Shown here: piece after piece, positions 46,974 through 62,760 of the stretch
Layout of the letters: each line of letters starts with the position of its first letter
Position numbering within the stretch: position 1 is the stretch's first letter
Virus record (IMG/VR): IMGVR_UViG_3300017992_000015
Coordinates: 85,367-149,366 of that record
DNA from: a virus
Taxonomy: Duplodnaviria > Heunggongvirae > Uroviricota > Caudoviricetes
DNA: 64,000 nt
Direction: 5' to 3' (one strand)
The notes under the pieces: model-generated
Database searches by the model: none
What the model was told of the DNA's origin: nothing
Seen by the model: only the letters and a program-made list of their open reading frames with translations
Position numbers and translations under genes: made by a program

Positions 46974-47366
46974 CTACTCTGCGGCCGGTTGCTCGTCGGC
47001 AAGTTCGCCGCCCGACACGGTGTGCGCGTAAATCAGCGCAGCGTTTCGAGCGAGTTCACTCTCTCCGACGAGTTGGTCTGCGGACTGCTTGACGTAGTCG
47101 TCCACATTCGGAGCCGATTGCGGGGCGAAGCGTTGCAGCATGTCCGTCAAGAACGGGTTCTCGGCGGAAGCTTGCTTCACTTGGCCTTGCTGCGCAGCTT
47201 CGGCAAGCACGGCGCCGAGTTGAAGCAGCTGCTTCGCTTCTGCGTCGTTCCGAGGCTCCACACCGTGGGCTGCCAGCTTCTCGAAGAAAGCCGGAACGTG
47301 GATCCGGTCAAGCATATAGGACTGAGCCTGGAGGGCTTGGTCCTGAGTCGGAAGATTGGTACTCAT
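46974..47366 (-). CDS. Hypothetical head-module protein
   Basis: 130 aa, acidic, carries EKLA and VKQA motifs. Confidence 0.7.
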   Translation of the reverse strand: MSTNLPTQDQALQAQSYMLDRIHVPAFFEKLAAHGVEPRNDAEAKQLLQLGAVLAEAAQQGQVKQASAENPFLTDMLQRFAPQSAPNVDDYVKQSADQLVGESELARNAALIYAHTVSGGELADEQPAAE

Positions 47367-47412
47367 TTGTTTTCCGTTCCGGATTGGGGTTCAAGGTTGA
47401 TCCACAGGTCCC

Positions 47413-47443
47413 GCCTCCCGGGGTTTACAAAGCCCCGGGAGGC
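47413..47443. terminator. 11-bp GC hairpin without U-tract after the major capsid gene
   Basis: GCCTCCCGGGG-9 nt-CCCCGGGAGGC, 21 nt past the MCP stop. Confidence 0.55.
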
Positions 47444-47464
47444 AAGCCACGGAAAGGGATTCGA

Positions 47465-48391
47465 CTACGCGAAGTCGGCACGTGCGAGACCGCCCGTATG
47501 ACCGATGCTTCCGCCACAGGTTTCGTAGGCGAAGAACTCGATCATGAAGGCTTCCCGCTTGATGTGCATCGTGGTGTCTTCCAGAAGATACGACTTGCCG
47601 ATGAACCGAGGGTCACCGAACATGTAGAACGTATCGTCGGGAACGAGGTCACGTTTGATCGTGACGACCCACTTGACACCCATCAGGTCGATCTCCGACC
47701 AGCCGTTCTTCAAGAAGTCGCCCGAGAGGTCGCCGCCGGCCTCGTCGTAGCCCCACTTGAGGATTTCACGGATGGTGACGTTGTTCACCAGGACCGTGTT
47801 GACCTCGAGGTGCGACGGGGTCTTCGGCATGATCTTCAGGGCTTCTTGAGTGGTGTCACGCGAGATCCCACCGAAGATGGTTTCCCACTGGATGACTCCA
47901 CTGGTCGGGACGATGGCATTCGCACCAACGAGGGCGGTGTTCACGGCGGTGAGGAACTTGGAGTCCTCTTCCGCGAGCATGTCCTTGATGGCGTTGTCCG
48001 AAAGGACTTGCCGAATATCCATCTGCCATGTTCTCAGTTCGTCAATGTCCTTGACGAAACGCGGCGTCACGATCCGGTCGAACATCACGCGGTAGCGAGG
48101 ACCGCGGATGTACACGTTGATCGGCAACGTGGCGAAAGGGATGGAGATGGCGGCCGGCGAACCGGGTTCTTTGTCCACCACGACCACGGGCTTGTCCGTG
48201 TCGACTTGACGATCGAGATCGTCGTTCGCAACCTGGACAGGCGGGATGATCTTGCGGTAGAAACCATCTTCGCGGACTCGTACGCGGGTGAATTCGTTCA
48301 CCGCGTCGAGCGCGTTCTTTTCCATCCCCGGCGTCTCGAGCTGAGCAAACAGCTCTTCGTTCAGGACTTGGACGCTAGAGGGACTGGACAT
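47465..48391 (-). CDS. Major capsid protein (HK97-fold, inferred)
   Basis: 308 aa. Order protease, acidic scaffold-like proteins, cement, this gene. RVRVREDGFYRKIIP and AIKDMLAEEDSKFL fit the backbone-helix pattern. 3' stabilising hairpin. Start at MSSPSS. Confidence 0.78.
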   Translation of the reverse strand: MSSPSSVQVLNEELFAQLETPGMEKNALDAVNEFTRVRVREDGFYRKIIPPVQVANDDLDRQVDTDKPVVVVDKEPGSPAAISIPFATLPINVYIRGPRYRVMFDRIVTPRFVKDIDELRTWQMDIRQVLSDNAIKDMLAEEDSKFLTAVNTALVGANAIVPTSGVIQWETIFGGISRDTTQEALKIMPKTPSHLEVNTVLVNNVTIREILKWGYDEAGGDLSGDFLKNGWSEIDLMGVKWVVTIKRDLVPDDTFYMFGDPRFIGKSYLLEDTTMHIKREAFMIEFFAYETCGGSIGHTGGLARADFA

Positions 48392-48477
48392 CAGTTTCCT
48401 CCTTGCAATGGTAAATCGCCGCATCCTCGCGGCGCTGGGTTGTCAGTTACGAAAACGGACTCCCTTCGAGCCTAACC

Positions 48478-49059
48478 CTAGACGATCGGGGCAGCAGGCA
48501 GGAAGTAGGTCCAGAACGAAAGCACGGTGACGCCGTGGGCGTTTTCGCCGACGGGGCTCGTCGCGGCGGCCGACTGATTGTCGCCCTGCACGTGCCACGA
48601 GGCGATACCGCAAATCCAGTCGGTGTACTGAAGAGCGCCGACGTTGGTCAGGATGCCATCGGCATCCCCGGTCAGCGGATCATTCGGTGCGTACACCTGT
48701 TGATCGTCGAACTCCGTGGTTTGGAGTTCATAGCCACCGGTGGCGACCAGACCGGACATTACGCCAGTCGGGGCGACAGCCCACCAGTGATCGACGTCCG
48801 TGACGGGACTGGTCCCGTTGTTGTAGACGTCGGGGTGGTCCTTCCCGTTCCACAGGAAGATCGGCATCTGCGTGCCGTCACCACCCAGCTCAAACTCACC
48901 GTCCACGTTGATGTGCGCCACGCGGCCCGCGGGGACCTCGGTCGCACTGTCAAGCAGCGAAGCGGCCAGCTTGGCAGATTTGTCGAGTGCAGACAAGTGG
49001 AACCAGCCCTTGAGCGTGTCCAAAGCCTGTTCGAACATTTGAGGCACTTGACCAGGCAT
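48478..49059 (-). CDS. Capsid cement/decoration-like protein
   Basis: Directly upstream of the MCP. VPAGRVAHIN...GVMSGLVATGGYELQTTEF...YAPNDPLT. GGAGG RBS, start at MPGQVP. Confidence 0.55.
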   Translation of the reverse strand: MPGQVPQMFEQALDTLKGWFHLSALDKSAKLAASLLDSATEVPAGRVAHINVDGEFELGGDGTQMPIFLWNGKDHPDVYNNGTSPVTDVDHWWAVAPTGVMSGLVATGGYELQTTEFDDQQVYAPNDPLTGDADGILTNVGALQYTDWICGIASWHVQGDNQSAAATSPVGENAHGVTVLSFWTYFLPAAPIV

Positions 49060-49130
49060 TCTTAACCTCCGTGTCAAGATTTGTATGCCAGCCTTGCGGA
49101 CTGACGTTGGTTACAGGGTGAACTACTCAG

Positions 49131-49538
49131 TTACTGGCTGAGCAGTCGGTCGCGAAACGCACGACCTGCATCCGTCTCGTCGAAGTCAGCCACACGGCTG
49201 CCTGTCGCTCCACGGGCGCTAGCAGTCTTCTCTTGGCCGACCGGGGTGCCAATCGAGGAAACCTCTTCGGCGGTCCGGTGCTTGGCCAGGTCGCGGATGA
49301 ACGTCAGACACGCGGCGTGGCCCGTTTCCGGGTCGCCGAGGGCTGCCGCCACCTTCTCACTCTGATCACCGTAGATGCGCTCGTTGTCGACGCACGCGGC
49401 AACAGCTTCCGGAAGCGCTTCCTTGACTTGTGCTTCCTTGGCTTGATCGGCAGCGACCTTTTCTTGGAACCGCTTGCTAATCTCGTTGCTCGCACGCAGA
49501 GCCGCGAGGACCTTTGGTGCGTTCGAGTTGGTGCTCAT
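49131..49538 (-). CDS. Head-module protein (scaffold/core-like)
   Basis: 135 aa, helical, with EKVA (twice) and EKTA motifs. GGAGG RBS. Confidence 0.65.
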   Translation of the reverse strand: MSTNSNAPKVLAALRASNEISKRFQEKVAADQAKEAQVKEALPEAVAACVDNERIYGDQSEKVAAALGDPETGHAACLTFIRDLAKHRTAEEVSSIGTPVGQEKTASARGATGSRVADFDETDAGRAFRDRLLSQ

Positions 49539-49600
49539 GTTAAACCTCCGGGTTCACAAAACCGCATCGCCTCGCGGCGACAACAGGATTTTTGGTGAAA

Positions 49601-50851
49601 CTACTTTTGGCTGCGTCGATACAGTTCGGTGACGAAGCCCTTCATGTAGTCCCTGACCTTACGTTCGTCCGAGCCTTGCTTCGCTTCTTCGAAGTAGAAG
49701 CGGCCCGAGCTCTTGTGGTCGTGGACTGCGGCTGCGATCTTGGCCCCTTCGGGACCAGCGGCAGCAAGTGCAGCGGGATCGATGCCGGCTTCCATCAGGG
49801 CCATAGCCAACTGTTGGATAGCCGCTTCATCAGGCATGCCGCCCATTTCCGGCGGAGGTCCGCCTTCAAGGCCGCCCATCTCCGGCGGCATCCCGCCTTC
49901 GAGACCGGGCTCCATGCCAGGCTCCATGCCCGGTTCCATGCCAGCTTCCGGGGGAAGCTCGCCACCGAGACCTTCTTCAGGGCCGCCGCCGCCCATGGCA
50001 GCCAGAAGTTCCTCAGCGCCTTCTTCACCACCTTCTTCACCTTCGGGCGGCGCTTCGGTAGGGTCCGAGCCGTTGTCCTCCCCTTCTTCGGCTCCGCCGG
50101 TGGGATCTTCAAGCGCAGCGGTGTCTTCTTCCGCTTGCTTCAAGAGCTCGAGGTCGTGGTAGACCTGAGCCGCGACGAGATCGGCTTGGTGATAGGCTTG
50201 CTTGACGATGTTCTGGACAACGCCCGAAGCAATCTTCTCCATCTCGTCGCCAGCGTCAGAGGCGTCCGACGCTACCTTCTCACCAGCACGCGCAGCCGCA
50301 TTGGCGTCGCCAGCCGGAGCAGGAGTGTCGCCGTCCCAGAGACCGTTGGCAACATCCGCGAGGATGTCATCGCCAAGGTCCTTGGCGCACTTGCAGAGAT
50401 CGTCGTCACCAAGTTCGGCGAGCTTGTCGGCGGAGTACTTCTCGCCGTAGTCGCCCTTGGCCGGATGGCTCGTGCCACCCTGGTCGCCTTCCCGCTTGTC
50501 GCCCTGAAGCGTACCCTTGTAGTCCTCCTCGGTCGAAGGATCTTGGCCGGTCGGCTTCGCGGCATCGACGCCCTGTCCGAGCTGCACGTCTTCGGCCTTG
50601 GGGGCCGAGCCTTCGGTGAGCTCAGGCTTCTTGTTCGTCGTGTCGGGAATGTCCTCTTTCACTTTCCGCTCGTTGTCAGCGGATTGGAAACCTTCCACGG
50701 GATCCTGTTCGTTGTCGTCCGGCTTCTTGGACGGGTGCGAGGTAGGACCCTCATAGCCACCTGGGTCGTCCATCGCGGACTTGTCGGCGGCCGTCTTTTC
50801 CGCACCGATCTCGTTGACGAGGTCAGTGACGTTGTCGAATAGGCTAGGCAT
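49601..50851 (-). CDS. Acidic low-complexity head protein (scaffold/core-like)
   Basis: Very Glu/Asp/Gly/Pro-rich, EPGM tandem repeats, many KxA motifs. GGAGG RBS. Confidence 0.7.
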   Translation of the reverse strand: MPSLFDNVTDLVNEIGAEKTAADKSAMDDPGGYEGPTSHPSKKPDDNEQDPVEGFQSADNERKVKEDIPDTTNKKPELTEGSAPKAEDVQLGQGVDAAKPTGQDPSTEEDYKGTLQGDKREGDQGGTSHPAKGDYGEKYSADKLAELGDDDLCKCAKDLGDDILADVANGLWDGDTPAPAGDANAAARAGEKVASDASDAGDEMEKIASGVVQNIVKQAYHQADLVAAQVYHDLELLKQAEEDTAALEDPTGGAEEGEDNGSDPTEAPPEGEEGGEEGAEELLAAMGGGGPEEGLGGELPPEAGMEPGMEPGMEPGLEGGMPPEMGGLEGGPPPEMGGMPDEAAIQQLAMALMEAGIDPAALAAAGPEGAKIAAAVHDHKSSGRFYFEEAKQGSDERKVRDYMKGFVTELYRRSQK

Positions 50852-51419: not shown

Positions 51420-52928
51420 TTACCTCACAAAGTTTGATCTGACGGCCATCTCCTGCATGAATGCGGCGTCTGGATCAGCCGCATGGGCTTGGAGGAAGCC
51501 AAGCTGGTACAAGGCGTACTGCTTGGCCAGCTCCTCAGCACTGTCGACCATAGCTATCTTGGTCATCGACCGACGGGGGTCAGGCGCCTTCGGCTGCCGC
51601 AAAACGGACAGTTGGAGCCGCTCGATGACGCGGTCGCGAGCCAGCGACCATTCGCCGGCGTGTTTCAGCACCCAATGCCTGACGCGTTTTGGCGCTGGAC
51701 CACCGGGCAAATAGGGGTTCTGACGGAGGTCCTCTTCGAGCCTCGGATCAGATGCCAGACGATTGTACACGCCTGGCAAGCGGTCCGCAACGGCGTCCGC
51801 TGCGGCTGCTGTTTTGGTGTTGTGTTCGCCGGTCAGCATGGCGATGAACGAATCAACAGGAAGCATGCACTTCTCTGCTGCCAGTGCTGTCACGACGTGG
51901 GCCAGCTTGTACGGACCCTTGCGGACGTCAGGAGCGTCGATCCGGAGCGGTTGCACAACCGGCTGGCACGCACGATCTTGCGCAATGGGGCTCCCGTCGA
52001 CCTCCAGTGCGTTCTCTTGCTGGATCAGGTAGTTTGCCACCTTGAGTTGTCCAACGACACGCGGGTCACTCCAGGGGCCGTCTGTGAGGATCCAGAGAGG
52101 CGGGGTAACCCCAAGTCGCTCCGCAAGCGCTGCAGCACTTTGCTCAGATCCGTAGGTGTCTGCGGCGGCTTTGAGCATTTCTTGGTAGTCTTCTGCTGCA
52201 GCACATTTACCAAGCGTGTAAGCGATGCGATCTGCCGGGCGAAAGACCTTCGAGATGTCGAAGAAGCATGGATCTGGGTTGTCGACATGGAGCGTATGTC
52301 CGTCATCGAAAGTCTTGGCGAGGTTATCTCTGCATCCGCCATATTTGCACATCTCCGGTCCACAGTATTCTTTGCGGCTCTTGGCATGGTTGCCACAGCC
52401 AGAACAGACGTCATGGCTGACACGGCAGGCCATCGACACCGGGATGTCTTCGCCTCGTGCCAGTTTCTCGAGCTCTTCGTCAGCGACAAGCCCGCCGTTG
52501 CGATCGGCAGCTTCCTTGGTGCCGTTGAGCGCAACGATCAGCTCCACGCGCCGCATATCGCCATTATACGCGGAAGCTTTGATGATACCACGTCCCTTGG
52601 AGACGTCCTTGTTCTGATGATCGCGGTACCAGCGGGCGAATTTCTGGAAAGTCGGGTGATATGCCTGCAAGACCTCCTCACGGAAGCCGTCGCCGTTGCG
52701 GTTGGCTCCGTAGTACTCTTGGGCACCGACGGCTAGCAAGTGGACAGGGACCTCCCCAGGGCCAAGCTGCATGCTGGCCACCTTGTCGATGAACTGCACC
52801 GACGCGCGTTTCACGAACTCATCCATATCAGATCCACGGAGCCTGCCGTCGCGGCCCGTCTTGATCTGCTGTGCCACCGGAGCGTGAAAGTCGTACGATC
52901 CAGGAGTCAAAAGTTTCGTGAGTGCCAT
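51420..52928 (-). CDS. Prohead maturation protease (assemblin/HK97-type serine protease fold, inferred)
   Basis: YYGANRNGDGF, YRDHQNKD (candidate catalytic His), RVELIV, IPVSMACRVSHDVCSGCGN (candidate catalytic Ser followed by a Cys cluster). Located upstream of the capsid genes. Confidence 0.72.
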   Translation of the reverse strand: MALTKLLTPGSYDFHAPVAQQIKTGRDGRLRGSDMDEFVKRASVQFIDKVASMQLGPGEVPVHLLAVGAQEYYGANRNGDGFREEVLQAYHPTFQKFARWYRDHQNKDVSKGRGIIKASAYNGDMRRVELIVALNGTKEAADRNGGLVADEELEKLARGEDIPVSMACRVSHDVCSGCGNHAKSRKEYCGPEMCKYGGCRDNLAKTFDDGHTLHVDNPDPCFFDISKVFRPADRIAYTLGKCAAAEDYQEMLKAAADTYGSEQSAAALAERLGVTPPLWILTDGPWSDPRVVGQLKVANYLIQQENALEVDGSPIAQDRACQPVVQPLRIDAPDVRKGPYKLAHVVTALAAEKCMLPVDSFIAMLTGEHNTKTAAAADAVADRLPGVYNRLASDPRLEEDLRQNPYLPGGPAPKRVRHWVLKHAGEWSLARDRVIERLQLSVLRQPKAPDPRRSMTKIAMVDSAEELAKQYALYQLGFLQAHAADPDAAFMQEMAVRSNFVR

Positions 52929-52940: not shown

Positions 52941-54320
52941 TTATTGAAGCGATTCGTTGGCTTTACGTTCTGCCTCAGCCAGCCGCTGCGTAATCGACGT
53001 GGGTCCGCCGCGGAGGCCCTGCATCGCAGCGTCCACGACCGGCGGCAATGCGGCCAGACCGAGCGACGCGGCGCCACGCATACGTTTGCTGGGGCCCTTG
53101 GAGGCCCGACGCTGTGCCTGTGCCCGGGCCATGTCCATCTGATCCGTTCCGCGGAATTTCCTGAGCAGCGAATCTTTCTTGTCGCCCGCGGTCAGCTGCT
53201 TTGCGCCCTCGCTCAGCCGCCGCCACTCCTTGTTCTTGAGACGCTCAGCATCCCGGATCTTCTTAAACTCCTGTTGGGCCTCATAAAGCTGTTGCTGGAT
53301 CTGTGGGCTCGGCGGTTGTGCACCAGTCTTCAGCTGCTGGTCGATCTGTTTTTGGATCTGCCGCACCTTTTTGGCGGCCTGCGCAGAATCAGCCATCCGT
53401 TGTGGTCGAGAGTCTTCGAGGTTCTTCAGCTGCTTCTTGTGCTTACGCCACCGCTTGTTTACGGCATCGTGCGTACCTTCTCGCAGCATAACCTTGTCTG
53501 CTTCTGCAGGACTCAGACCGAGATGCTTCATCACGTCACGGCCCTGTTGAAACGCCGGCGCGTCTGTGGGCACACGGCCTTTGATACGTTGAATGGCCTC
53601 GAGCTTGTTCAAAATCGGCACCTTGTCGAGCCACGGCAGCGAAGCGCCAACAGCTGACGCAACCGGAGTCACAGCGTCGTCAGGCGTGAAGACGTCTGTG
53701 GCTGCTTCTAGCGGCTGCATGTTACGCCAATCCCACCCCCACTCGCCACTCTCCGGGTCGGCAGTAACACCGCCACGGCGTAGCGCCCATTCACGCCCGC
53801 TCATCGGCTCGCCGATGCCTGGCTCGCTCTCAAAGCGCGGACGCGCGGCTTCGCGGTTGACCAAATGCTCACGCGCGGCTTCAGTCGTAGCTTTATTCAT
53901 CACGTCTTGGGACTCTGCGTGGCGACCGTGCTGCCCGCGGTAAAGCGCACTGCCGAGGCCGGCACCTACGCCGCCGAGGAGACCGCCGGTCAGCGTACGG
54001 CCAACCCAGTCCCCGCGACGTCGCCGCGGTTGAAACAGCGTGCTCAGCGCGCCGAGCCCAGCGCCACCAGCCGTACCGATGGCAATGTTGCGCAGATTCG
54101 GATATTGGTTGACCTTATCGAGGACACTCTTGCCTGCCGCGGTAATCCCGCGTTCAGCCGCCCAGTCGCCGACCCGCCCGGCCTGTTGGCCCAGCCAGTC
54201 TTTGGCGCCCGACGCAGCATCCCCGATACCCTGCTTGAGTTCAGCAAGGCTGAGTGCCTCCTTGACGAGTGCATGGCCCTCGTCATAACTCATCTCATTG
54301 AAGTCTACGTCGGGTAGCAC
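52941..54320 (-). CDS. Putative internal virion protein with glycine-zipper helices
   Basis: IAIGTAGGAGLGALSTLF and TLTGGLLGGVGAGLGSAL GxxxG arrays, basic C-terminal half. GTG start behind AAGGAG. Confidence 0.6.
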   Translation of the reverse strand: MLPDVDFNEMSYDEGHALVKEALSLAELKQGIGDAASGAKDWLGQQAGRVGDWAAERGITAAGKSVLDKVNQYPNLRNIAIGTAGGAGLGALSTLFQPRRRRGDWVGRTLTGGLLGGVGAGLGSALYRGQHGRHAESQDVMNKATTEAAREHLVNREAARPRFESEPGIGEPMSGREWALRRGGVTADPESGEWGWDWRNMQPLEAATDVFTPDDAVTPVASAVGASLPWLDKVPILNKLEAIQRIKGRVPTDAPAFQQGRDVMKHLGLSPAEADKVMLREGTHDAVNKRWRKHKKQLKNLEDSRPQRMADSAQAAKKVRQIQKQIDQQLKTGAQPPSPQIQQQLYEAQQEFKKIRDAERLKNKEWRRLSEGAKQLTAGDKKDSLLRKFRGTDQMDMARAQAQRRASKGPSKRMRGAASLGLAALPPVVDAAMQGLRGGPTSITQRLAEAERKANESLQ

Positions 54321-54331: not shown

Positions 54332-56002
54332 TTACGGATTGGGCTTGGGCTTTCTGAGCGCGTCGAGCTGCTTCTTCTGCTCAGCAAGTTGCTTCTTCTG
54401 CTCAGTAATTAGATCTCGATTCTCCCGATCCTGTCCCGGCGTCAAGTGCTGGAACGACGGGCGCATCGCGCTGCTGACGTCAGACGGCAGCACCGGCATT
54501 TGCGCACCGGTCGGCAGCGGGTTCGGCGGGCCGAGCTCGCGGGACACACCCATACGGCCGACGTTGGCCAGCTGTTGCGGCATGTCGCGGTCGGCGACCT
54601 GTCCCTCGATCTTGAGCGCCTGCTCGACGTCGAACGGGTCGATCGCCGATGCCTGCTCCAGGTACTTGCGGATCAGGCCCTGGGCCATCACCCGGTGCTG
54701 CATGGCGCGCGGCGCGACCTCGGCCAGGTGGTTGTAGGCGTCGATCACGTCGGAGTGGTCGTAGCCGCTGATGACCGGGTCGGCGGACATCATCTCGTGG
54801 ATCATGGCCTGGGCACGGATGGCTCGCAGGTGGTCTTCGTGGCCCGGATCGGCAATCGACTTGAGGTGCTTCTGGATCAGCTCCTCGCGCGTCTCCGGGG
54901 CGTACTTCTCAGCAAGACCCTTTGCGGTACCGCCCAACGCGCCAGCCATTGTCAGACCCATGAACGACGCAGACTTAGTCTGCGATTGATTGTCCCATAC
55001 TGAGCCTGTGATCACGTTTGGACGGTCCGGTGCAAAAGGGCGCAGAGTCTCCGCGCGCTTCTCCGGGAGAGCGGCTTCGAAGTCGGCCAGGGCCTTCTTG
55101 GTGTCGTTGAAGCGGGCGATCGCGTCGACAGCGGACTTGATCAGCGAGTAGGGCGCCTCGTCCCAGTCGACATCGTGGGTCACCTGGGATGGTTGGGCGT
55201 ACGCCTGCTTGAACATCACGGTGGACTTCTCGACCAGGCCGCGGCCCGTCTGTCCGTAGCGTGCTCCGGCATTGGCCCAGACCTCGTTGATCGGGCGGCT
55301 GTCAAACCGGCGGAAGTAGTTGGCCAGCTTCTCGACGCCGTTCGTCACGTCGTACGCCGATTTGATCGCAGCGTCCTTGCGCTGCTGGTGCTCGCGCCGG
55401 AGATCGTGCATGGCCGACAGGGCCTTCTTCTCCTGGCGGTACGGGTATGCCGGGTACGCTGCCTCTTTTTCCTCTGCCTCTTCTTCGGCAGCTTCTTCTT
55501 CGGCGGACTCCCTTTCGACCTCCACTTCGCCGTCTTCGATCTCAACTTCGATGACGCCGCCTCCTGGCGCCTTGGTCTCGATCTCCAGCTCTTCGGCGGA
55601 CTTCACCAGCGACACAGTGCGCGCAGCCTCTGCCCGGCGCTTGAGCCAGCCAGCAGGCGACATGTTGTAGTCGTCCGAGATGGACACACCGTGGGCTTCC
55701 TCGGCAGCCGTCTTGACCTCCGACGGGAACATCCGTTCAAGGATCTTCCTACCGTCAGCCAGCGGGAACGCCGCAGCCTTTTCGGTGAGCGTCTCGTGTT
55801 CGCGGATATGGCCGAGGCTTCGGCCGTTGTTGAACGCCCGCACCATGAGATTGACATGGCCAGCCGGCAGTTTTGCGGCGGTCGCAACCTTAACAATCGC
55901 ATCGTCCGGATTCGTTCCGGAGTTGGTCAAATCTGTGACCTTTGCGAGAGCGTTGCTGATCCGCTGCTCACTCTCCTTCGTGAGCCTTTGCATTTTGGTC
56001 AT
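54332..56002 (-). CDS. Putative internal head protein (many KxA motifs)
   Basis: Acidic linkers, KVA/KAA/KTA/KSA/KEA/KLA/KQA motifs, FMGLTMAGALGG segment. Start at MTKMQ behind GGAG. Confidence 0.7.
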   Translation of the reverse strand: MTKMQRLTKESEQRISNALAKVTDLTNSGTNPDDAIVKVATAAKLPAGHVNLMVRAFNNGRSLGHIREHETLTEKAAAFPLADGRKILERMFPSEVKTAAEEAHGVSISDDYNMSPAGWLKRRAEAARTVSLVKSAEELEIETKAPGGGVIEVEIEDGEVEVERESAEEEAAEEEAEEKEAAYPAYPYRQEKKALSAMHDLRREHQQRKDAAIKSAYDVTNGVEKLANYFRRFDSRPINEVWANAGARYGQTGRGLVEKSTVMFKQAYAQPSQVTHDVDWDEAPYSLIKSAVDAIARFNDTKKALADFEAALPEKRAETLRPFAPDRPNVITGSVWDNQSQTKSASFMGLTMAGALGGTAKGLAEKYAPETREELIQKHLKSIADPGHEDHLRAIRAQAMIHEMMSADPVISGYDHSDVIDAYNHLAEVAPRAMQHRVMAQGLIRKYLEQASAIDPFDVEQALKIEGQVADRDMPQQLANVGRMGVSRELGPPNPLPTGAQMPVLPSDVSSAMRPSFQHLTPGQDRENRDLITEQKKQLAEQKKQLDALRKPKPNP

Positions 56003-56933
56003 CTCCGTCTGGGTATCCAATGTCGGTGGTAAGATATTCCAAGCCTTCCGGCTCGATGCCCATCGAGAGCATCATCAACTCGTGTGATCGCAGGGTCATA
56101 CCATCCTTCTCGAACTCGGTGGAACGACCAATCATCTTCGGCGAGACGCCTTCGATGTACTTGATCCACGGGATGCAGTTCTGCATCGCCTGGACGTTCT
56201 CAGCCATCAGCTCGCTGCCGCCACCCGCCGCACCAGCCTGTTGCTCGAGTGCGGCCATGTTGTGGAACATGTTCAGGATGCCTTCGGCAGTGTAGCCGTT
56301 GATCTGGATGGTACGCGCGGCCACGTTGGCCTTCACTTTGATCACTTCCTTCGTGTCGTCGCCCCAATGCGCTGAGACCTGACTTGGGGTCTCCGGGCGC
56401 GTCGGCGCGTTGAACTTGTAGATAAAGGCGTCCAAGACTAGCGGGCCGCAGTGGTATCCAAACAGCTTCCACAGCAAATCGTATTGCCGCTCCGCAAGGC
56501 CGGTCTGCACAGCTTTGCCGACAATGATGTGGGTGATCAAGCCTGGATGATCAATACGACTCATCACATCGAAGAAGGCCTCCTCGTAGCGCTTGATCAC
56601 ATCCACGTCTTCGTGGATCTTCTGACCAATGCTTTCGAAGGACTCACGGGCCAACAGGCGAGCCTCGAGCTCCCATCGAGTCTCAGTGGGGGTTTCGTTG
56701 GCATCGTAAATCAAATAGGCCGAAAACAGCACGGGATCGGCATCCAGCGCCGCGAGCCGGTCTTCGTCCGTCTCACAGCGGTCCAGGAGTCGGCGGAACT
56801 TCGTCAGCTCCCTTACGATGCTGTCATCCCGTCCAGCGATGAGGCGCGAGCCGTTGGCGAGTTCGCCAGCCCGCTGCCACCGCCAGTCTGCGGGACGCCT
56901 CTTGTTATCGGGTCTGTTTACCAGAATCGACAT
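55968..56933 (-). CDS. Hypothetical protein
   Basis: 321 aa, GAGG RBS, 35-nt overlap with the next gene. Confidence 0.7.
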   Translation of the reverse strand: MSILVNRPDNKRRPADWRWQRAGELANGSRLIAGRDDSIVRELTKFRRLLDRCETDEDRLAALDADPVLFSAYLIYDANETPTETRWELEARLLARESFESIGQKIHEDVDVIKRYEEAFFDVMSRIDHPGLITHIIVGKAVQTGLAERQYDLLWKLFGYHCGPLVLDAFIYKFNAPTRPETPSQVSAHWGDDTKEVIKVKANVAARTIQINGYTAEGILNMFHNMAALEQQAGAAGGGSELMAENVQAMQNCIPWIKYIEGVSPKMIGRSTEFEKDGMTLRSHELMMLSMGIEPEGLEYLTTDIGYPDGDDQNAKAHEGE

Positions 56934-57441: not shown

Positions 57442-59814
57442 TTAGACCTCACCCTCGCCGAAGTCGACGTCGACTCCCTCGTCCGGGTAGGGCTCGATTG
57501 TTTTCTGCTTGAGTTCCAGGGTCACGTCACCCAGGCTCTCGAACGAGTTGCGCATGGCATCTTCCAGCTCGGGCAGATTGTTGCTGCCGTATCTGTCCTC
57601 AAATTTGTCGTGATGCCAGTACATGTTGAACAGCAGCCGGCCCATGCTGTCCAGACCCTTCATCAGGTCCGGCAGGTGCCGATCGATCAGAGTCTCGTTC
57701 TGCGAGCCCTTGAGCAGGTTCGACAGGAGCGAAGTGTCGAGCACTTCCTTCTGGCCTGTCTGGGCTGCTTCCATGAGTTGCTGCCCCATCATCGGCTCGG
57801 GCGGCTCGGCCATCTGCCCGCGCTGGCGGCGTCCGCCACGCAGGTCGTCGACCGGGTACTCCTCTTCCATGCCGTAGTTGGTCGGCAGGCCGGAGCCCAT
57901 GATGAAGTCGGTGGACTCGTACTGTTCCGGGATCGCCGGAGCCGACGGGGCGCTGGAGAGCAGATCGTACGGCTGGGCGTACTTGATCCGGTACTTCACG
58001 CCTCGCTGCAGCTGGGCGTTCTTCAACACGTCCTTAGCGGTCTTCTCGGCGCATCCGTAGTCGCGGACGAGCGAGATGAGCGCAGCCTTGGGCGTCGAGT
58101 GCCTGCCGTTGACGATCGCTTCGGTGCCGTTGTTGAAGACTTCCAGCGCGCTGGACGTCTTGTAGATGCCCAGCTGGAGGTCGACGTGGTCGCCTGGCAC
58201 AAGCGCGGGCGGGTCGCTCGAGTCCGCGCACGGGTTGCAGCACCCGGGGATGCTGTCGCCGTCCTCGTCCTTCGGCGGGTCGGCAATCTTCAGTGCCTTG
58301 GCGCCGGGCGGTACGAGCAGCTCGTCCAACCGCGACACGAGCTTGTGGCCCTTGATGCGGTTCAGCACAATCTGTTCGACGCTGCTGGTGTTGTCCCACT
58401 CGTAGTGGCCGTGGCTCGGCGACGGGATCAGCTTGTCGGCCCGACGCCGGACGTTACCGTAATGACGCCAGCGGACCTTGTACCGCTTTTCCTCGCCCTC
58501 GGAGGGCAGAGTGTCCTCGACCTCGAACACGCTCGTACCGTGTCCGGTCGTGGTGAGCAGCGCATAGGTCGCTCCGACCTGCAGGCTGTCCGCGTTCGGC
58601 AGTCCGTTGAACCAGTCGTTGTAGTCGCTACCGGAGTACTTCTCGATGACGTAGATGTCGCCGGGGTGCACTTCGGTATAGGCCTTCTTGTCGCCGCCGA
58701 CCCGTACCAGGACGCCGTTCGGCTTGCGGCCACGCGGGCCGTGCGGGGCGTGGATGTACAGGCACTTCTCGAAGGAGTCCGGCTTGCAGAGGACGTCGTA
58801 GTGTCCAGTCTCGTCCGGGTTCTGGAGCGTCATCGGCTCCTGGACCTTGTAGACCTTCGACTTGTCGTAGCGGTCGTCCTTGATGTAGACGCCGTCGCGT
58901 TGCAGTTGCTCGGCCTGCTTTTCGGTCAGCCCCCTGCGGCATGCTTTCGTGCCGTTGTATGTCCAAATGCGGAGGCTGCCAGTGTTGATCGGATCGGCTT
59001 CTTTCGCTTGGTCCATCGCGGACTTCTCGCGGAAGATGCTACCACCGACTTGGATGTCTCGTTTCTTGCGCGGCGGTTCCGTCGGACAGACGGTGCTGGC
59101 GGTCTTGGCAACGCCGATCGCTTCGTCGACAAGCTCCCGACCGTAGTTTTCGACGATCGGGCGAGCCAGCTGCGGCGTGGAGTCAAGGACCTGGAGGAAC
59201 CGCGTAGCGACCGCGGCACTGGCCTTGATCAGCTCCGGCGCTTTCGGCTCACGCTTAGCGACGCGACCGAGCGCGTGCATGAGGCCGGGCATACCGGCGT
59301 CGAGCCATTGATCCGACGCGTACTTGTTCGGTGATTCGCGGAACTGGTCGAGCGATGGGCGACTGACGCCGAGCATGCTCAGGTTGCGTGTGACCTCTTC
59401 GCCGATGACGTTCGGCTTGCGGTTCAGCACGTAGTTGACCCAGTTCTCTTTGAGGGGAACGAACGTGTCGCTCTCCTTGAGGTACATGAGCTCGTGCCCG
59501 CGGAGTTCGCCGTTCAGGAAGAACACCGGAGCATAAATGAGTTGCGGCCCCACCTTGAAGCCAAAGACACCGACAGCCCGATCGTTGTCCTCATTTTTCT
59601 CGAGAAGCTGGAAGCCCAGCATGAAGTCGAGCAGCTGTGGAGCCTTGTCTTTGAGGTAGGCGTGTGCCAAGTTGCTGAAGGCACTCTCGAAGCTCTGGCT
59701 GTCGCCGGATTCTCCACCCATGTCCGCCTGTTTGAGAAAGTCGGAGCGTTGGAGCGAGCGGCAGACACCGCGCCAGTAGCTTACCCCACCCATCTGTCGT
59801 AGGTTTGTACTCAT
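57442..59814 (-). CDS. Large head-module protein of unknown function
   Basis: 790 aa. An N-terminal leader ends DFLKQA, and further KxA motifs sit at compositional boundaries. Confidence 0.75.
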   Translation of the reverse strand: MSTNLRQMGGVSYWRGVCRSLQRSDFLKQADMGGESGDSQSFESAFSNLAHAYLKDKAPQLLDFMLGFQLLEKNEDNDRAVGVFGFKVGPQLIYAPVFFLNGELRGHELMYLKESDTFVPLKENWVNYVLNRKPNVIGEEVTRNLSMLGVSRPSLDQFRESPNKYASDQWLDAGMPGLMHALGRVAKREPKAPELIKASAAVATRFLQVLDSTPQLARPIVENYGRELVDEAIGVAKTASTVCPTEPPRKKRDIQVGGSIFREKSAMDQAKEADPINTGSLRIWTYNGTKACRRGLTEKQAEQLQRDGVYIKDDRYDKSKVYKVQEPMTLQNPDETGHYDVLCKPDSFEKCLYIHAPHGPRGRKPNGVLVRVGGDKKAYTEVHPGDIYVIEKYSGSDYNDWFNGLPNADSLQVGATYALLTTTGHGTSVFEVEDTLPSEGEEKRYKVRWRHYGNVRRRADKLIPSPSHGHYEWDNTSSVEQIVLNRIKGHKLVSRLDELLVPPGAKALKIADPPKDEDGDSIPGCCNPCADSSDPPALVPGDHVDLQLGIYKTSSALEVFNNGTEAIVNGRHSTPKAALISLVRDYGCAEKTAKDVLKNAQLQRGVKYRIKYAQPYDLLSSAPSAPAIPEQYESTDFIMGSGLPTNYGMEEEYPVDDLRGGRRQRGQMAEPPEPMMGQQLMEAAQTGQKEVLDTSLLSNLLKGSQNETLIDRHLPDLMKGLDSMGRLLFNMYWHHDKFEDRYGSNNLPELEDAMRNSFESLGDVTLELKQKTIEPYPDEGVDVDFGEGEV

Positions 59815-59904: not shown

Positions 59905-61791
59905 CTAGGTTTTTGGAGGCTTCAGTACGCTCTGAGGCCAGTTCTTGGCAAAATCTTCTCCGGCGGCCAGCGACGGTACGAAGCTGGTGCTCTTTGTGTC
60001 CGAGACGGCACCGCGATGGACCGCGGACATCAGGTTCTTCTTCTGATCACTTCCTAGGAAGCGGACGAGCGGGTCCGGGTCGTGTCCGACCGAAGCCTGC
60101 GCCCGGACCATGTACGGTCGAAAAGGCGGAGCTTCGTCGTGGACATCGATGTTCTTGACACCGAACTCGTCCAAAACTGGTAGCATTGACGGCTTAATCT
60201 GGGTGCCGACCGTGTAGTGCAGCACCGGGCTCTCCAGGTACTTGCCGACGCCCAGTTTGGGGGCTACGGAACGCATCCCGTCACGGGGTTGCCACCCGGC
60301 CTCGAGCTGCTGGTACGGGATCACATCGCCGGGGACGTGATCGTCGTCCTCGTCGGTCATCTCGACGTGGTCGATCAGGCTCCGAGACAGCAGTTCGATG
60401 TTCCTGCGATTGGCATACATCTTACCGGCACGGTACGCATCGGCAAAGATGTCGATGAAGTAGCGCCGACCCTCGCCGATGCCCTTGTGCTTGACGATTT
60501 CGGACGGATTCGGGATGCCGTCGCTGATCACGTCGCCGGCTTCGACGTTGTCGCCACGCTTCACCTTGAGGCCGAACCCGGGCAAAACGAAGTGCCGCTC
60601 GCCGCTGATGGTCACGTACTGGCCACCGGCGGGCGCTTCTGTGATATCGGTCACTTTTCCGTCCATTTGGGCGTGCGCAGCGCCACCTTTGAACGTTTTT
60701 GGCACCTGCACGAGCTGATTGACGTGCTGGAAGCCCGTCACGGACTGTGTTTCGCCCTTCACGCCGCCGGAGTGCTTCGAACTCAGGGCACCCTGTGTGA
60801 GCTTCTCAGAGAGCGCCTGTGCGGCTGCGATGCCAACCATGTCTCCAACCGGGGGCAGGTCTCCGCGCTCGCGTACGCCCACGTCACGGGCGTATACGCC
60901 GCTTGACGGGCCGGCGACCGTCGGAGAACGCACAAGGATGCGTTCCATGCCCTGATCGGCCAAATCTTCAAGGATTTTGGGCGTCAGAACTGTATTTCGC
61001 TTGTATCCGCCCATATCTGAGGCCAAAAGTGCCCCTTCGTTGTCCGGATCGTCGGTTTTGACCGGCAAACCACGCAAAACACGGCTCTTTTTGGCCGTTT
61101 TGTCCTCTTCAGCGTCGTCGGCGAGCACCATGAGCCGATGAGTGAGCTGATTCAGCTGTTTCGAGAAGTATCCGACGTCCATCGTGGCAAATTTCTCGTC
61201 GATGATGCCTTTCCGGGCTCCGTACGTGCCCGCCCAGTACGAAGCGGGGTCGAGACCCTCGCCGTAGCTCTGTTGCACCGGAAACGGGATCGTGTGGTCG
61301 TGGTGGTCGACGTAGAGCATGTCGCCGCCGATCAAACGCTTCAGGGTCATTTTGTTGCCTCGGGCACCCGATGCGACCTGGTCGGCGAGCGGGTTGCCCA
61401 GCTCTTTGGCGTCAGCGTACACGCCATCGAGCAGCTTCTCGTGCTCGGCGGCGGTCGCCTCGATGATCTTGGCTTCCTTCTTGTCCTCGTCCCAGTTGTC
61501 CTTCGACATGATCTCGCGGATGCGCCGGTTCAGGCGCTGGCGAGACGCCAGTACGGACTTGGTCGGACGCAGGTGCTCGATGCTGAACGACTGACCGCCG
61601 GTTGTATACGCCGCGTCACGGCCGACATCGGCGAGCTTCTTCGAGATCTCGCGGTACTTGTCCGGATCCTTCTCTGCGATCTCACGGAGCAACTTCTTGA
61701 CGCCCTTACCGTCCAAGGTGCGTGTGTAGTCACGCATCTCTTTCGGCAGGGCCTCGTTGACCAGCAGTTGTCCAATGGTCGTCTTAAGCAT
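59905..61791 (-). CDS. rpoC: Phage multisubunit RNA polymerase beta-prime, C-terminal half
   Basis: KTTIGQLL (TTVGR motif), ASGARG, SYGEGL...YGARKGIIDEKFATMDVGYFSKQL (bridge helix), VGIAAAQALSEKLTQGALSSKHSGG (trigger loop), VEAGDVISDG, NRRNIELL. Confidence 0.93.
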   Translation of the reverse strand: MLKTTIGQLLVNEALPKEMRDYTRTLDGKGVKKLLREIAEKDPDKYREISKKLADVGRDAAYTTGGQSFSIEHLRPTKSVLASRQRLNRRIREIMSKDNWDEDKKEAKIIEATAAEHEKLLDGVYADAKELGNPLADQVASGARGNKMTLKRLIGGDMLYVDHHDHTIPFPVQQSYGEGLDPASYWAGTYGARKGIIDEKFATMDVGYFSKQLNQLTHRLMVLADDAEEDKTAKKSRVLRGLPVKTDDPDNEGALLASDMGGYKRNTVLTPKILEDLADQGMERILVRSPTVAGPSSGVYARDVGVRERGDLPPVGDMVGIAAAQALSEKLTQGALSSKHSGGVKGETQSVTGFQHVNQLVQVPKTFKGGAAHAQMDGKVTDITEAPAGGQYVTISGERHFVLPGFGLKVKRGDNVEAGDVISDGIPNPSEIVKHKGIGEGRRYFIDIFADAYRAGKMYANRRNIELLSRSLIDHVEMTDEDDDHVPGDVIPYQQLEAGWQPRDGMRSVAPKLGVGKYLESPVLHYTVGTQIKPSMLPVLDEFGVKNIDVHDEAPPFRPYMVRAQASVGHDPDPLVRFLGSDQKKNLMSAVHRGAVSDTKSTSFVPSLAAGEDFAKNWPQSVLKPPKT

Positions 61792-62071
61792 GCGGAGGAT
61801 CCTCGCCAGGCTTCCAGAGGCGGCTGCCCTTAGGCGGCGCCGCGAAGGAATCCTTGTCGATATGATCGCTGATGACGGTCTCGTTGATGCCCAACTGAGA
61901 GAGCATCTTGTTCATGACCTCGTCGCCGTCGCCGCGATCGATGATGTACTGGTGCCCTGGAGTCGGTTCCAGGGCCACAGCAATGACGCCGTTGATTGGG
62001 CACCGCAGTACAACGCGAGTCGCTTCGATGCGCTGCGGATTGCCCAACTTGTTGTGGAGTTCAACAATCAT
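61784..62071 (-). CDS. Hypothetical protein between the RNAP halves
   Basis: 95 aa, AGG RBS, overlaps the start of the beta-prime C-half by 8 nt. Confidence 0.65.
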   Translation of the reverse strand: MIVELHNKLGNPQRIEATRVVLRCPINGVIAVALEPTPGHQYIIDRGDGDEVMNKMLSQLGINETVISDHIDKDSFAAPPKGSRLWKPGEDPPHA

Positions 62072-62073
62072 GA

Positions 62074-62760
62074 TTACCTACGGTGCAGGCTTCGGGACAT
62101 GGCGGAGATCGCATCGAGCCGCAACTGCGACGCGTCCTCTCGCTCCCCGTCGACTGGACCGCGGAACATCGACAACGCATCGGCTCCTGCTTTCTCAGGC
62201 CCGGACGGGGCTTCAATCGGGCTGACGGGCGCGTTCCCGCCGATACCCGGCAACGCCGGTCCGCCGCCGCCACCCTCGGGCGGGGCACCTTCGGCGCCGG
62301 CTCCGAGCGGCGCGCTCTGCGGCATCTGGCCTTGAGCGACCATCGCCACAGCACCGTCGTCCAGAATGTCGGGAGGCATGTCGATGCCCGTGTGCTTCAT
62401 CATGTGGGTCAAGAGCTTCCGAACGCGGGAGAGCTCCATGTAGATGAAGGTAGGATCGATCTTGGGCTTTCCACCGGCTCCTGGGGCTCCACCAGCTGCA
62501 GGCGCAGGGGCAGCGGCTGGCGGTGCTCCCGCCATTGCAGCCGGGTCCATCGGCGGGGCGGCTCCTGCCATCGCCGGGTCCATCGGCGGTGCTCCGCCTC
62601 CTGCCATCGGATCCATCGGCGGAGCTCCTCCGGGCGGCATCGCTCCCGGCGGCATTCCGCCCGCCGCCGGATCACCTGGTACGAAAGCCTTTTTCTCGTT
62701 CTCACCGGCCAACCTCCATTCGGCAAGATCGAAAAGCATCGGGTTCATTTCGTGGGACAT
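62074..62760 (-). CDS. Low-complexity Gly/Pro/Ala/Met protein between the RNAP halves
   Basis: Leader ending ENEKKA, followed by GGMPP and PPMDP(A)MAG tandem repeats. Confidence 0.7.
   Translation of the reverse strand: MSHEMNPMLFDLAEWRLAGENEKKAFVPGDPAAGGMPPGAMPPGGAPPMDPMAGGGAPPMDPAMAGAAPPMDPAAMAGAPPAAAPAPAAGGAPGAGGKPKIDPTFIYMELSRVRKLLTHMMKHTGIDMPPDILDDGAVAMVAQGQMPQSAPLGAGAEGAPPEGGGGGPALPGIGGNAPVSPIEAPSGPEKAGADALSMFRGPVDGEREDASQLRLDAISAMSRSLHRR

Follow-up and report, generated by a model that had tools for sequence, protein, structure and literature searches.

A Lys-x-Ala motif in the head-module proteins of an uncultivated phage as a probable prohead-protease cleavage code

In an uncultivated 162-kb phage, the short pattern Lys-x-Ala (K-x-A) recurs in proteins encoded by the head module. 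The question raised by this locus is whether the recurrence reflects a functional signal and, if so, whether it is the code by which a prohead protease cuts its substrates, as a first-pass annotation had proposed. The window analysed here is the whole stretch of 64,000 nucleotides taken from this phage; its head module occupies positions 46974-62760 on the minus strand and comprises 14 ORFs (4,996 aa). All features given below with coordinates lie on the minus strand, and the coordinates are those of the window. With expected counts computed from each protein's own composition, the head module contains 68 K-x-A occurrences versus 30.7 expected (z 6.7), and the pattern ranks first among approximately 1,600 spaced residue-pair patterns (gaps 0-3). 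The remaining 42 ORFs of the window are at expectation (44 observed, about 48.6 expected), and K-x-A per Lys amounts to 23.5% in the head module and 8.2% elsewhere. The examples quoted in the first-pass annotation were all found in the genes it named, and the enrichment that its proposal required is large and specific. Its statement that the motif recurs in nearly every head gene was too broad: the excess is strong, but it is concentrated in five proteins (135, 416, 502, 562, and 790 aa), whereas the RNA-polymerase piece and the 321-aa, 152-aa, and 459-aa proteins have no more K-x-A than expected. Of 13 head proteins, 10 have a site between residues 15 and 50, compared with 24 of the 119 non-head proteins of the genome (Fisher p 7e-5).

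The excess is specific to both spacing and residues. K-A, K-xxx-A, wider spacings, and A-x-K show no excess over expectation, and K-xx-A rises only slightly above it (z 1.7 over the whole module, 2.2 in the five proteins alone). R-x-A and K-x-S do not depart from expectation, and K-x-G is depleted. Composition-preserving shuffles of each protein give z values of about 7-10 for K-x-A, and the excess remains against local, decile-level composition. Internal repeats that could account for it were not found, nor is there an excess in other helical proteins of the genome. At the DNA level, AAR-NNN-GCN occurs 53 times in frame 0 versus 7, 1, and 10 times in the other frames and on the opposite strand, and codon usage at the sites is the general usage of the same genes; the signal thus resides at the protein level. 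As a positive control, the same blind scan was applied to T4 gp20-gp24, in which I-x-E ranks first, and to the T4 core proteins, in which I-x-E ranks first and L-x-E second, with T4 non-head proteins at expectation. Since the scan recovers the experimentally known gp21 code, a known cleavage code does leave a statistical trace of this kind.

The same trace is found in relatives of the phage, whose capsid proteins are 29-96% identical. K-x-A ranks first in the head modules of Salmonella phage Arash (z 5.4) and Vibrio phage D69 (z 6.0) and is not top-ranked in their tail genes. Nearly all of approximately 70 IMG/VR relatives show it in first or second place in the region preceding the capsid gene (z 4-8.6), where it is paired with L-x-K or M-x-K; downstream, in the tail genes, it takes such a place in none of them. 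Over 3,156 sites, information is confined to P5-P2' and gives the footprint [L/M]-[E/V]-K-x-A-[S/A]-[D/E]; the K-x-A core that was first described thus stands, but the real signal is longer. Pro is depleted 3-5-fold from P5 through P1' at motif sites, and Trp is nearly absent at P1', whereas tail K-x-A sites show no matching flank preferences. When scored with a flank matrix trained on distant relatives, 23 of the 68 head sites reach at least 2 bits versus 1 of 44 elsewhere. Single sites mostly turn over among homologues while site density stays; the conservation on which the first-pass annotation had made its proposal depend takes two forms, key sites that align in register and a density that persists.

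Among the enriched proteins, the 502-aa protein (51420..52928) is the predicted protease precursor, in which a disordered linker joins the prohead-protease domain at the N-terminus to a helical domain at the C-terminus. It contains 12 K-x-A versus 3.3 expected, and its family contains 515 versus 185 (54 sequences) or, across 150 cluster representatives, 1,954 versus 561. In its AlphaFold model (m89c0ce927a3d), pLDDT exceeds 90 at residues 50-235 and falls below 50 at residues 240-274 and 451-460. In this model, the catalytic domain (residues 17-240; 52209..52880) folds like T4 gp21 and herpesvirus assemblin: the VIA-align Z score is 9.9 against T4 gp21 (5jbl; rmsd 2.8 A over 139 of 165 residues), 8.4 against the VZV protease, and 6.4 against the HCMV protease, with the next unrelated fold at 5.2. 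The modelled structure thus confirms the fold typical of MEROPS S77/S21/S78 enzymes, the family to which the earlier annotation had pointed. From the sequence itself, the family relation is not detectable: a Pfam search with the 502-aa protein returned no match, Peptidase S78 included, and hhalign against T4 gp21 gave a probability of 0.2. The catalytic domain also carries a four-Cys motif (C168, C175, C178, and C189), of which the last three residues are invariant in 48 homologues and the first nearly so. The candidate catalytic residues His104 and Ser165 are invariant in the same 48 homologues; their spacing is 61 residues compared with approximately 55 in T4 gp21, and the NRNGD motif upstream of them aligns with NRNKR of the T4 enzyme. 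The protease gene shares its strand with the capsid gene, whose product has the HK97 fold, and precedes it by 3 kb; Arash, D69, and 68 IMG/VR loci have the two genes in this order.

The domain boundaries of this protein themselves carry the motif. Immediately ahead of the catalytic domain, K40-R-A42 (52803..52811) is where the enzyme is predicted to process its own N-terminus; in the 48 homologues, K40 never varies and A42 hardly does, the site is in register in 94% of homologues, its flank score is 4.4 bits, and a site within the 50 aa preceding the NRN motif is present in 48/48 homologues versus 13.6 expected. Position and conservation likewise point to K241-C-A243 and K253-A-A255 (52164..52208), in the disordered linker, as release ('R-like') sites: K-x-A occurs within 45 aa after the RPAD motif in 48/48 homologues (12.2 expected), and the linker position after the protease domain reads L-[EQ]-K-V-A in Arash, D69, and phage G gp19. 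K457-I-A459 (51552..51560), a predicted 'M-like' site 43 residues from the C-terminus and before the last two helices, sits in the low-confidence loop 451-460, and 47/48 homologues have a site in their last 70 residues (17.4 expected). In terms of architecture only, this is a herpesvirus-like layout: an N-terminal protease, a linker with a site, and a C-terminal domain with a site near its end. Several further K-x-A sites lack conservation and sit inside helices of the protease domain that are predicted with high confidence, so some occurrences of the motif cannot be substrates.

The major capsid protein (319 aa; 47465..48424) was assigned to the HK97 fold from its model (mbab1c7a0ba32, pTM 0.79) and from Foldseek matches to the HK97 and D3 capsid proteins (probability 1.00, E about 1e-9); it also has a weak PHROG major-head-protein match. 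Its single K-x-A site, K36-N-A38 (48311..48319; context P-G-M-E-K-N-A|L-D-A-V), lies in the model at a helix break (residues 31-34). The Lys and Ala are invariant in 61/61 non-redundant homologues, with L, M, I, or H at P5, and this conservation suggests a maturation site; the mature protein is predicted to comprise residues 39-319 (281 aa). The mature part of the capsid protein actively avoids the motif: 59 homologues contain 16 K-x-A in this region versus 75.7 expected, and 45 of them contain none.

The remaining enriched proteins are the predicted multi-site substrates. The 562-aa acidic protein (54332..56020), possibly a scaffold or internal protein, has 15 K-x-A versus 4.7 expected (263 versus 86 in its family), all within residues 44-372, and is poorly structured by prediction (Atlas model pLDDT 0.43). 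In its family, the first 70% of the length has 3-4 times the expected number of sites and the last 30% hardly any (0, 3, and 0 versus 8, 3, and 6 expected), so that the C-terminal part would be spared; 95% of homologues keep the site at residue 44, and 81% keep the one at residue 81. In the 790-aa probable virion protein (57442..59814; 12 versus 3.2 expected, family 188 versus 92.5), sites are clustered and none lies beyond residue 613; its homologue, Arash gp218, was found in a virion preparation (PMC10585845). The 416-aa acidic Pro/Gly/Met-repeat protein (49601..50851), a predicted scaffold-like substrate, has 9 versus 3.5 (family 215 versus 87), five of its sites scoring at least 3 bits on the flank matrix, and the 135-aa protein (49131..49538), also a predicted substrate, has 5 versus 1.5, two at 4.4 bits. 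A putative polyprotein-like release of multiple products from such proteins is read solely from their site-dense versus site-free regions. Other proteins carry few sites: the 130-aa protein (46974..47366) has two high-scoring ones, at residue 30 (3.7 bits) and at residue 64 (5.2 bits, the maximum of the window), and the 199-aa protein adjoining the capsid gene (48478..49077), a candidate substrate and, as the first-pass annotation labelled it, a putative cement protein, has overlapping N-terminal sites at residues 33 and 36, weakly conserved among homologues, and no others. Single N-terminal sites occur in the 459-aa protein (52941..54320; residue 20), which is otherwise depleted (1 versus 4.0 expected), and in the 228-aa Pro/Ala/Gly-rich protein (62074..62760; residue 23). 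A separate observation concerns an unlinked 405-aa protein, which is encoded away from the head module and carries 15 sites.

It is reasonable to assume, with a probability of roughly 0.7, that the phage encodes a prohead serine protease, the N-terminal domain of the 502-aa protein, which recognises and cuts its substrates at [L/M]-[E/V]-K-x-A-[S/A]-[D/E], and the prohead-protease reading of K-x-A given by the first-pass annotation is in this respect supported. The motif is presumably cut; the proteases of T4, phiKZ-type phages, and herpesviruses have P3-x-P1 codes, and by analogy the cut would fall after the Ala. The occurrences named above as cleavage sites are predicted ones. Most likely, the code represents a new specificity within a known mechanism; a description of Lys-x-Ala protease specificity for any phage was not found in the literature. 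Inside the assembled prohead, the enzyme would first free itself by cutting at K40-x-A42, at the R-like linker site (241-255), and at the M-like site, 43 residues from its C-terminus. It would then shorten the capsid protein, which has the HK97 fold, by approximately 27-38 residues at the N-terminus, cutting after A38. Finally, many cuts would be made in the scaffold-like or internal proteins of 135, 416, 562, and 790 aa and in the unlinked 405-aa protein; site-free C-terminal parts would stay intact. The sole virion proteome of a relative, that of Arash, is available as coverage figures: the homologous proteins have 85-100% tryptic coverage in a list of 116 proteins that includes metabolic enzymes (PMC10585845), and such data neither show nor exclude processing. 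Full tryptic coverage means that uncleaved copies were present in the preparation. RNA-polymerase pieces, which are abundant in that preparation, show no avoidance of the motif, and this counts against the cleavage reading.

Two alternatives are of similarly low probability. The prohead protease might read the motif but cut elsewhere, either behind Lys, which would put Ala at P2', or at some other bond of the P5-P2' stretch; the footprint, which covers both sides of Lys and Ala, would allow this. However, the characterised enzymes of the gp21-assemblin fold all use a P3-x-P1 code. The L/I-x-E code of T4 was recovered in the control scan, SPN3US uses an A-x-E code with Ser favoured at P1' and several motif copies in propeptides (PMC10052503), and herpesvirus proteases cut after Ala (YLQA-T, VQA-S; PMC4498786). 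The small Ser or Ala that follows the Ala, together with the near absence of Trp, also fits a P1' position, which makes another scissile bond improbable. The second alternative, that the motif is an uncleaved short linear binding or targeting signal, one that for instance tethers internal proteins to the inner capsid surface, portal, or scaffold or loads them into the prohead, likewise seems unlikely. It would account for the restriction to head proteins, for the frequent location in the first 15-50 residues, where T4 capsid-targeting sequences lie, and for the recovery of Arash homologues at high coverage in the virion preparation. Nevertheless, 10-15 copies per protein with rapid turnover of single sites would be unusual for a targeting signal, and a binding motif does not predict avoidance by the mature capsid protein. 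The presence in all homologues of sites on either side of the protease domain, in disordered linkers, also counts against it. As T4 targeting sequences end in a cleavage motif, targeting and cleavage are in any case compatible.

It is considerably less probable that the motif marks Lys for another head-specific modification, such as acylation, methylation, or cross-linking by some enzyme. Lys is indeed strictly needed and Arg is no substitute, but no candidate Lys-modifying enzyme was seen in the head module; the protease is the sole enzyme there, its own domain boundaries carry the motif, and a footprint that spans P5-P2' and excludes Pro is typical of a peptide bound in extended form in a protease cleft. 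That the enrichment is a by-product of composition or secondary structure, arising from Lys/Ala-rich helices, low complexity, or internal repeats, for example, without sequence-specific function, is barely credible: the proteins concerned are rich in Ala, Glu, and Lys and for the most part helical or disordered, but the excess survives the shuffles, decile-level expectation, and the spacing controls (K-xx-A z about 2), is not due to repeats or shared by other helical proteins, and comes with specific flanks and motif avoidance in the mature capsid protein.

Cleavage at K-x-A by the phage's own protease can be compared with four known systems. HK97 gp4 (Peptidase S78) belongs to the same enzyme superfamily, in both cases the protease gene precedes that of an HK97-fold capsid protein within the head module, and removal of an N-terminal capsid segment, predicted here, is common to both; HK97-type enzymes, however, digest a long delta domain. 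To our knowledge, no simple recurring code in many head proteins has been described for HK97-type proteases. T4 gp21 (PDB 5JBL) is the best structural match of the catalytic domain and has the N-R-N motif in common with it. Both systems have a code of the P3-x-P1 type, seen statistically in the head module by the same scan, and the cuts in T4 match those predicted here: in the capsid N-terminus, at many sites in scaffold or core proteins, and in the enzyme itself. In contrast to the Glu and Leu/Ile of T4, P1 and P3 are proposed to be Ala and Lys, and the 502-aa protein has a four-Cys insertion by the candidate catalytic Ser and a 260-residue C-terminal extension. T4- and phiKZ-type codes are not enriched in the head module (L-x-E z 1.0, I-x-E 1.5, A-x-E 0.9, S-x-E 0.5, and G-x-E 1.7).

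The herpesvirus assemblin precursor (pUL26/pUL80a; PMC4498786) shares the fold, as judged from the VZV and HCMV proteases, and, when architectures are compared, the order of an N-terminal protease of approximately 240 residues, a linker, and a C-terminal domain that is helical. In both, conserved sites directly follow the protease domain and recur some tens of residues short of the C-terminus, and the Ala of the site is followed by Ser, Ala, or Thr. The codes differ in that P3 is strictly Lys here and Val, Leu, or Ile in herpesviruses, and in the hydrophobic P5 and Glu/Val P4 preferences, which are peculiar to the phage clade; V/L/I-x-A is at expectation in the head module, and the sites do not follow the herpesvirus consensus. 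More tentatively, and with the odds somewhat against it, Lys-x-Ala may be common to a whole family of prohead proteases as their code, a very large and nearly entirely uncultivated family (approximately 2,500 clusters at 50% identity) that reaches megaphage G and perhaps cluster C mycobacteriophages and combines a T4-gp21-like fold with assemblin-like Ala-P1/Ser-P1' and the protease-linker-scaffold layout. If this were true, the family would be a living intermediate between phage and herpesvirus maturation systems, and the capsid-internal (ejected) proteome, including the unlinked 405-aa gene, could be read from sequence alone.

Finally, phiKZ gp175 and SPN3US gp245, with their (S/A/G)-x-E code (PMC10052503, PMC5694885), provide the precedent of large phages in which many head-internal proteins are processed at one short motif. 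Their head genes have no detectable sequence relationship to those described here, A/S/G-x-E is not enriched in this module, and the capsid protein is far smaller (319 aa). Features in common are the several motif copies in propeptides, the preference for Ser at P1', and virion-associated RNA-polymerase subunits, which for this clade are known solely from the Arash preparation (PMC10585845).

K-x-A (Lys, any residue, Ala) was read by the first-pass annotation as a candidate cleavage code of head maturation, and its best explanation is indeed that it is the predicted cleavage signal of the phage's own prohead protease, the 502-aa protein (proteins are named here by length). When minus-strand ORFs were called and K-x-A was counted against shuffles preserving the composition of each protein, the head module (window 46974-62760, minus strand) contained 68 copies against approx. 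30 expected (z ~7), whereas the other 42 ORFs of the window contained 44 against 48. The excess is carried by five proteins (135, 416, 502, 562 and 790 aa), which together have 53 sites vs. 16 expected. Strong enrichment is found at this spacing only: K-xx-A reaches z ~2, K-A, K-xxx-A and wider spacings, A-x-K, R-x-A and K-x-S are at expectation, and K-x-G is depleted. A blind scan covered every residue pair at gaps 0-3 (~1,600 patterns): K-x-A was the top pattern of the head module, with z 6.7, and took rank 1,151 elsewhere, the background maxima in other gene sets being z 3.7-5.3. Glu-ending codes and V/L/I-x-A are not enriched in this phage. There is also an N-terminal bias, as K-x-A occurs at residues 15-50 in 10 of 13 head proteins vs. 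24 of 119 other proteins.

The signal is at the protein level. A DNA-level motif is ruled out by the frame counts of AAR-NNN-GCN (53 in frame vs. 7, 1 and 10 in the other frames or on the opposite strand), together with ordinary codon choice at the sites; internal repeats, another conceivable source, are not present. That the enrichment merely reflects the composition of the head proteins is improbable; the excess holds against local, decile-level composition. Genome-wide, only these head proteins and two unlinked proteins stand out. One is a 405-aa protein of no known family (genome 78585-79802, plus strand; L089), encoded 5.6 kb before the window start, with 15 K-x-A vs. 2.3 expected and typical flanks (e.g., F-V-K-S-A|S and L-E-K-L-A|R); it is a predicted additional substrate inside the head whose gene lies outside the head module. 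The other is a 112-aa protein (genome 34385-34723, minus strand; L090) with 5 vs. 1.1 expected, the gene of which adjoins one for an SMC/Rad50-like ATPase.

The same trace is found in relatives. The nearest cultured ones are Salmonella phage Arash (181 kb) and Vibrio phages D69, D181 and D148 (~187 kb), with a capsid protein identity of only ~30%; in both Arash (46 vs. 21) and D69 (51 vs. 22), the blind scan of the head module puts K-x-A on top, and in the tail modules it comes far from the top. An alignment of capsid proteins, used to search IMG/VR, yielded 80 loci on contigs of 150-230 kb (capsid identity 29-96%). Where the sequence upstream of the capsid gene was long enough, K-x-A almost always took first or second place there (z 4-8.6), usually partnered by L-x-K or M-x-K, whereas downstream of the capsid gene it is at expectation. 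When 3,156 K-x-A sites were pooled, a compact footprint emerged, with no information beyond P6 or P3': Leu/Met at P5 (42%), Glu (26%) or Val (13%) at P4, Gln/Glu favoured at P2, Ser/Ala at P1' (44%, with Trp almost excluded) and acidic residues at P2', while Pro is depleted 3-5-fold from P5 to P1'. The flanks of 500 tail-gene sites are those of the background. A flank matrix trained solely on relatives with <70% capsid identity gives at least 2 bits to 23 of the 68 head sites of the window vs. 1 of the 44 others. Sites at capsid residue 36, protease residue 40, residues 44 and 81 of the 562-aa protein and residues 598 and 611 of the 790-aa protein are well conserved in register; most others turn over, yet density is kept in each family (observed vs. 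expected: protease 515 vs. 185, 562-aa 263 vs. 86, 416-aa 215 vs. 87, 790-aa 188 vs. 92). In the 562-aa family, the first 70% of the length has 3-4 times the expected number of sites, and the last 30% has virtually none.

The 319-aa capsid protein has the HK97 fold. Its single K-x-A is P-G-M-E-K-N-A|L-D-A-V; all 61 non-redundant homologues keep the K and the A, while P4, P2 and P1' vary, and a cut after A38 would leave a capsid protein of 281 residues. Beyond this site, 59 homologues have 16 K-x-A vs. 75.7 expected, 45 of them having none at all, and this depletion of the predicted mature region is the strongest among seven control patterns. K-x-A might instead be a targeting motif that is never cleaved, which we consider unlikely: its presence at the processing point and avoidance in the shell protein are what a protease signal predicts and what a structural or binding motif does not. 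There is likewise little to recommend K-x-A as a mark for lysine modification.

The proposed enzyme is difficult to recognise by routine searches. The 502-aa protein (window 51420-52928, minus strand) has no Pfam match, and a profile search of PDB sequences returned nothing relevant. With hhalign, its comparison to T4 gp21 gave a probability of 0.2 and an aligned segment limited to NRN, where N-R-N-G-D of the 502-aa protein is matched to N-R-N-K-R. A Foldseek search with the full-length model had no significant match, gp21 and herpesvirus proteases being among the weak ones only. The fold was found by exhaustive structural comparison with VIA-align. The AlphaFold model, built on 48 homologues, has an N-terminal domain of high confidence, joined by a disordered linker (240-274) to a helical C-terminal domain, and its best match is T4 gp21 (Z 9.9, rmsd 2.8 Å, 139 of 165 residues), followed by the varicella-zoster (Z 8.4) and cytomegalovirus (Z 6.4) proteases, with unrelated folds at 5.2 or below. 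His104 and Ser165, invariant in the 48 homologues, are putative equivalents of the catalytic residues of the gp21-type fold. Directly after Ser165, a conserved four-Cys motif (C168, C175, C178, C189) resembles a zinc ribbon set into the protease fold; we know of none at such a place in gp21 or assemblin. About one-sixth of the protease homologues are ~380 residues longer and carry an intein (Hint plus LAGLIDADG endonuclease), among them the representatives P0001 (876 aa) and P0045 (888 aa), 24 more of the 150 nearest, and the proteases of loci L004, L020, L021 and L022. In P0001 the intein is placed at D-V-C, a conserved part of the four-Cys motif, and in P0045 it starts near residue 74; the presence of inteins in prohead proteases is a pointer to positions that are conserved and essential.

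K-x-A sites flank the protease domain with great regularity. All 48 homologues have one no more than 50 residues ahead of the NRN motif and one no more than 45 residues behind the RPAD motif, and 47 of 48 have one within the last 70 residues, shuffle expectations for these counts being 12-17. In the phage itself, these are K40-A42, then K241-A243 and K253-A255 within the disordered linker, and K457-A459, which is 43 residues from the end in a loop modelled with low confidence. The family comprises 2,522 clusters at 50% identity (E 1e-3 or better), and its 150 nearest representatives have 1,954 K-x-A vs. 561 expected, each of the 150 being enriched. Some sites sit in folded helices, and surely not all occurrences are used. 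The layout matches that of the herpesvirus pUL26 precursor, in which two sites are cut after Ala: a release site behind the protease domain, and a maturation site near the C-terminus whose cleavage separates the scaffold from the capsid protein (PMC4498786). The 502-aa protease is predicted to free itself by cutting at K-x-A, to remove the capsid-protein N-terminus and to cut scaffold-like or internal proteins at many sites. The scissile bond is predicted to follow Ala, because characterised relatives all use P3-x-P1 logic and the P1' residue is small; a bond elsewhere is a less probable arrangement.

That prohead proteases mature capsids is textbook knowledge, and I/L-x-E is the experimentally known code of T4 gp21. 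To our knowledge, few cleavage codes are known, and Glu is the last residue of those worked out for large phages (T4, phiKZ-type). In the blind scan, I-x-E ranks first in T4 gp20-gp24 (29 vs. 13.8), I-x-E and L-x-E rank first and second in the core proteins gp67, gp68, gp21 and gp22, and T4 non-head proteins are at expectation. The scan thus recovers the known gp21 code, which indicates that a prohead-protease code leaves such a statistical trace, and the trace in the present phage is stronger than in T4. The propeptides of phage SPN3US contain several copies of A-x-E, with Ser favoured at P1' (PMC10052503). The proposed mechanism is that of T4, phiKZ-type phages and herpesviruses, whereas the code differs. 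A literature search for a described K-x-A rule found none, although absence there is no proof of novelty.

If well supported, a Lys-x-Ala code would be a new specificity class for the gp21/assemblin enzyme fold and, through specificity as well as precursor layout, would tie the phage enzymes to the herpesvirus assemblins, which are Ala-specific. Mature capsid and packaged or ejected proteins would become predictable across a large clade of 150-230-kb phages known almost solely from metagenomes. Arash, D69 and phage G are cultured, which makes the code directly testable, and the blind spaced-pair scan of a head module, calibrated on T4, is reusable and makes such codes findable from sequence alone. 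Phage G gp19, named a maturation protease in the phage G paper without sites, has the same flanking sites as the 502-aa protease (G-L-V-K-T-A|A and L-E-K-V-A|S), and K-x-A is modestly enriched in phage G head genes (z 2.8, rank 3). Mycobacteriophage Alice gives a weak signal (K-x-A z 2.7, R-x-A z 2.8) and Gordonia phage Stormageddon no K-x-A enrichment (z 1.6). The capsid proteins of Alice (L088, 17791-18792) and Stormageddon (L087, 10987-11988), both distant protease relatives, share a conserved K-L-A approx. 45 residues from the N-terminus, just ahead of the conserved fold (Q-A-K-L-A-H and K-Q-K-L-A-S), possibly a maturation site of the K-x-A type.

Arash is described as an orphan myovirus that resembles no characterised phage (PMC10585845). 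Its virion proteome lists 116 proteins, metabolic enzymes among them, and is given as coverage (85-100% for the homologues of the proteins studied here) instead of peptides or termini; non-virion proteins were evidently part of the preparation. For the capsid protein of Arash the coverage is 86.6% (PMC10585845), which is not placeable on the sequence and is compatible with a missing N-terminal segment. RNA-polymerase subunits are among the most abundant proteins of that preparation (PMC10585845), though in the present phage the RNA-polymerase pieces have K-x-A at expectation and do not avoid the motif. These beta-prime-like pieces (window 59905-61791 and 62875-64000, continuing to genome 152614; minus strand) mark the head-module border, and one carries an N-A-D-F-D-G-D motif.

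The window spans bases 85367-149366 of one 161,817-bp contig with a G+C content of ~60%, in which the minus strand carries almost all genes. In the direction of transcription, a beta-prime-like piece is followed by the 790-, 152-, 321-, 562-, 459- and 502-aa genes, an endonuclease VII/HNH gene, the 416-, 135- and 199-aa genes, the 319-aa capsid gene and the 130-aa gene, after which come the tail-fibre genes. Ten head proteins searched against Pfam gave no match, PHROGs gave only a weak major-head-protein match and an unnamed family for the protease, and a Protein Atlas search with the 562-aa protein found no family. The endonuclease VII/HNH gene (window 50951-51418, minus strand; PHROG E 4e-39), between the protease and 416-aa genes, has three K-x-A with poor flanks and is probably a mobile insertion. 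The 459-aa protein (window 52941-54320, minus strand) contains two hydrophobic segments rich in Gly, is very basic in its C-terminal half and has one N-terminal K-x-A, being otherwise depleted (1 vs. 4.0 expected); blastp against the 80 related loci found no homologue. Low-complexity repeats occur in the 416-aa (M-E-P-G-M-E-P-G; window 49601-50851, minus strand) and 228-aa (A-P-P-M-D-P; window 62074-62760, minus strand) proteins, and the strand opposite both genes has long spurious ORFs, which a simple gene caller picks in preference. A 572-aa tail-fibre-like protein (window 44690-46408, minus strand), with PHROG tail-fibre matches, contains a repeated H-x-H...Y-Y-T-E-T-E-V-D unit near its N-terminus.
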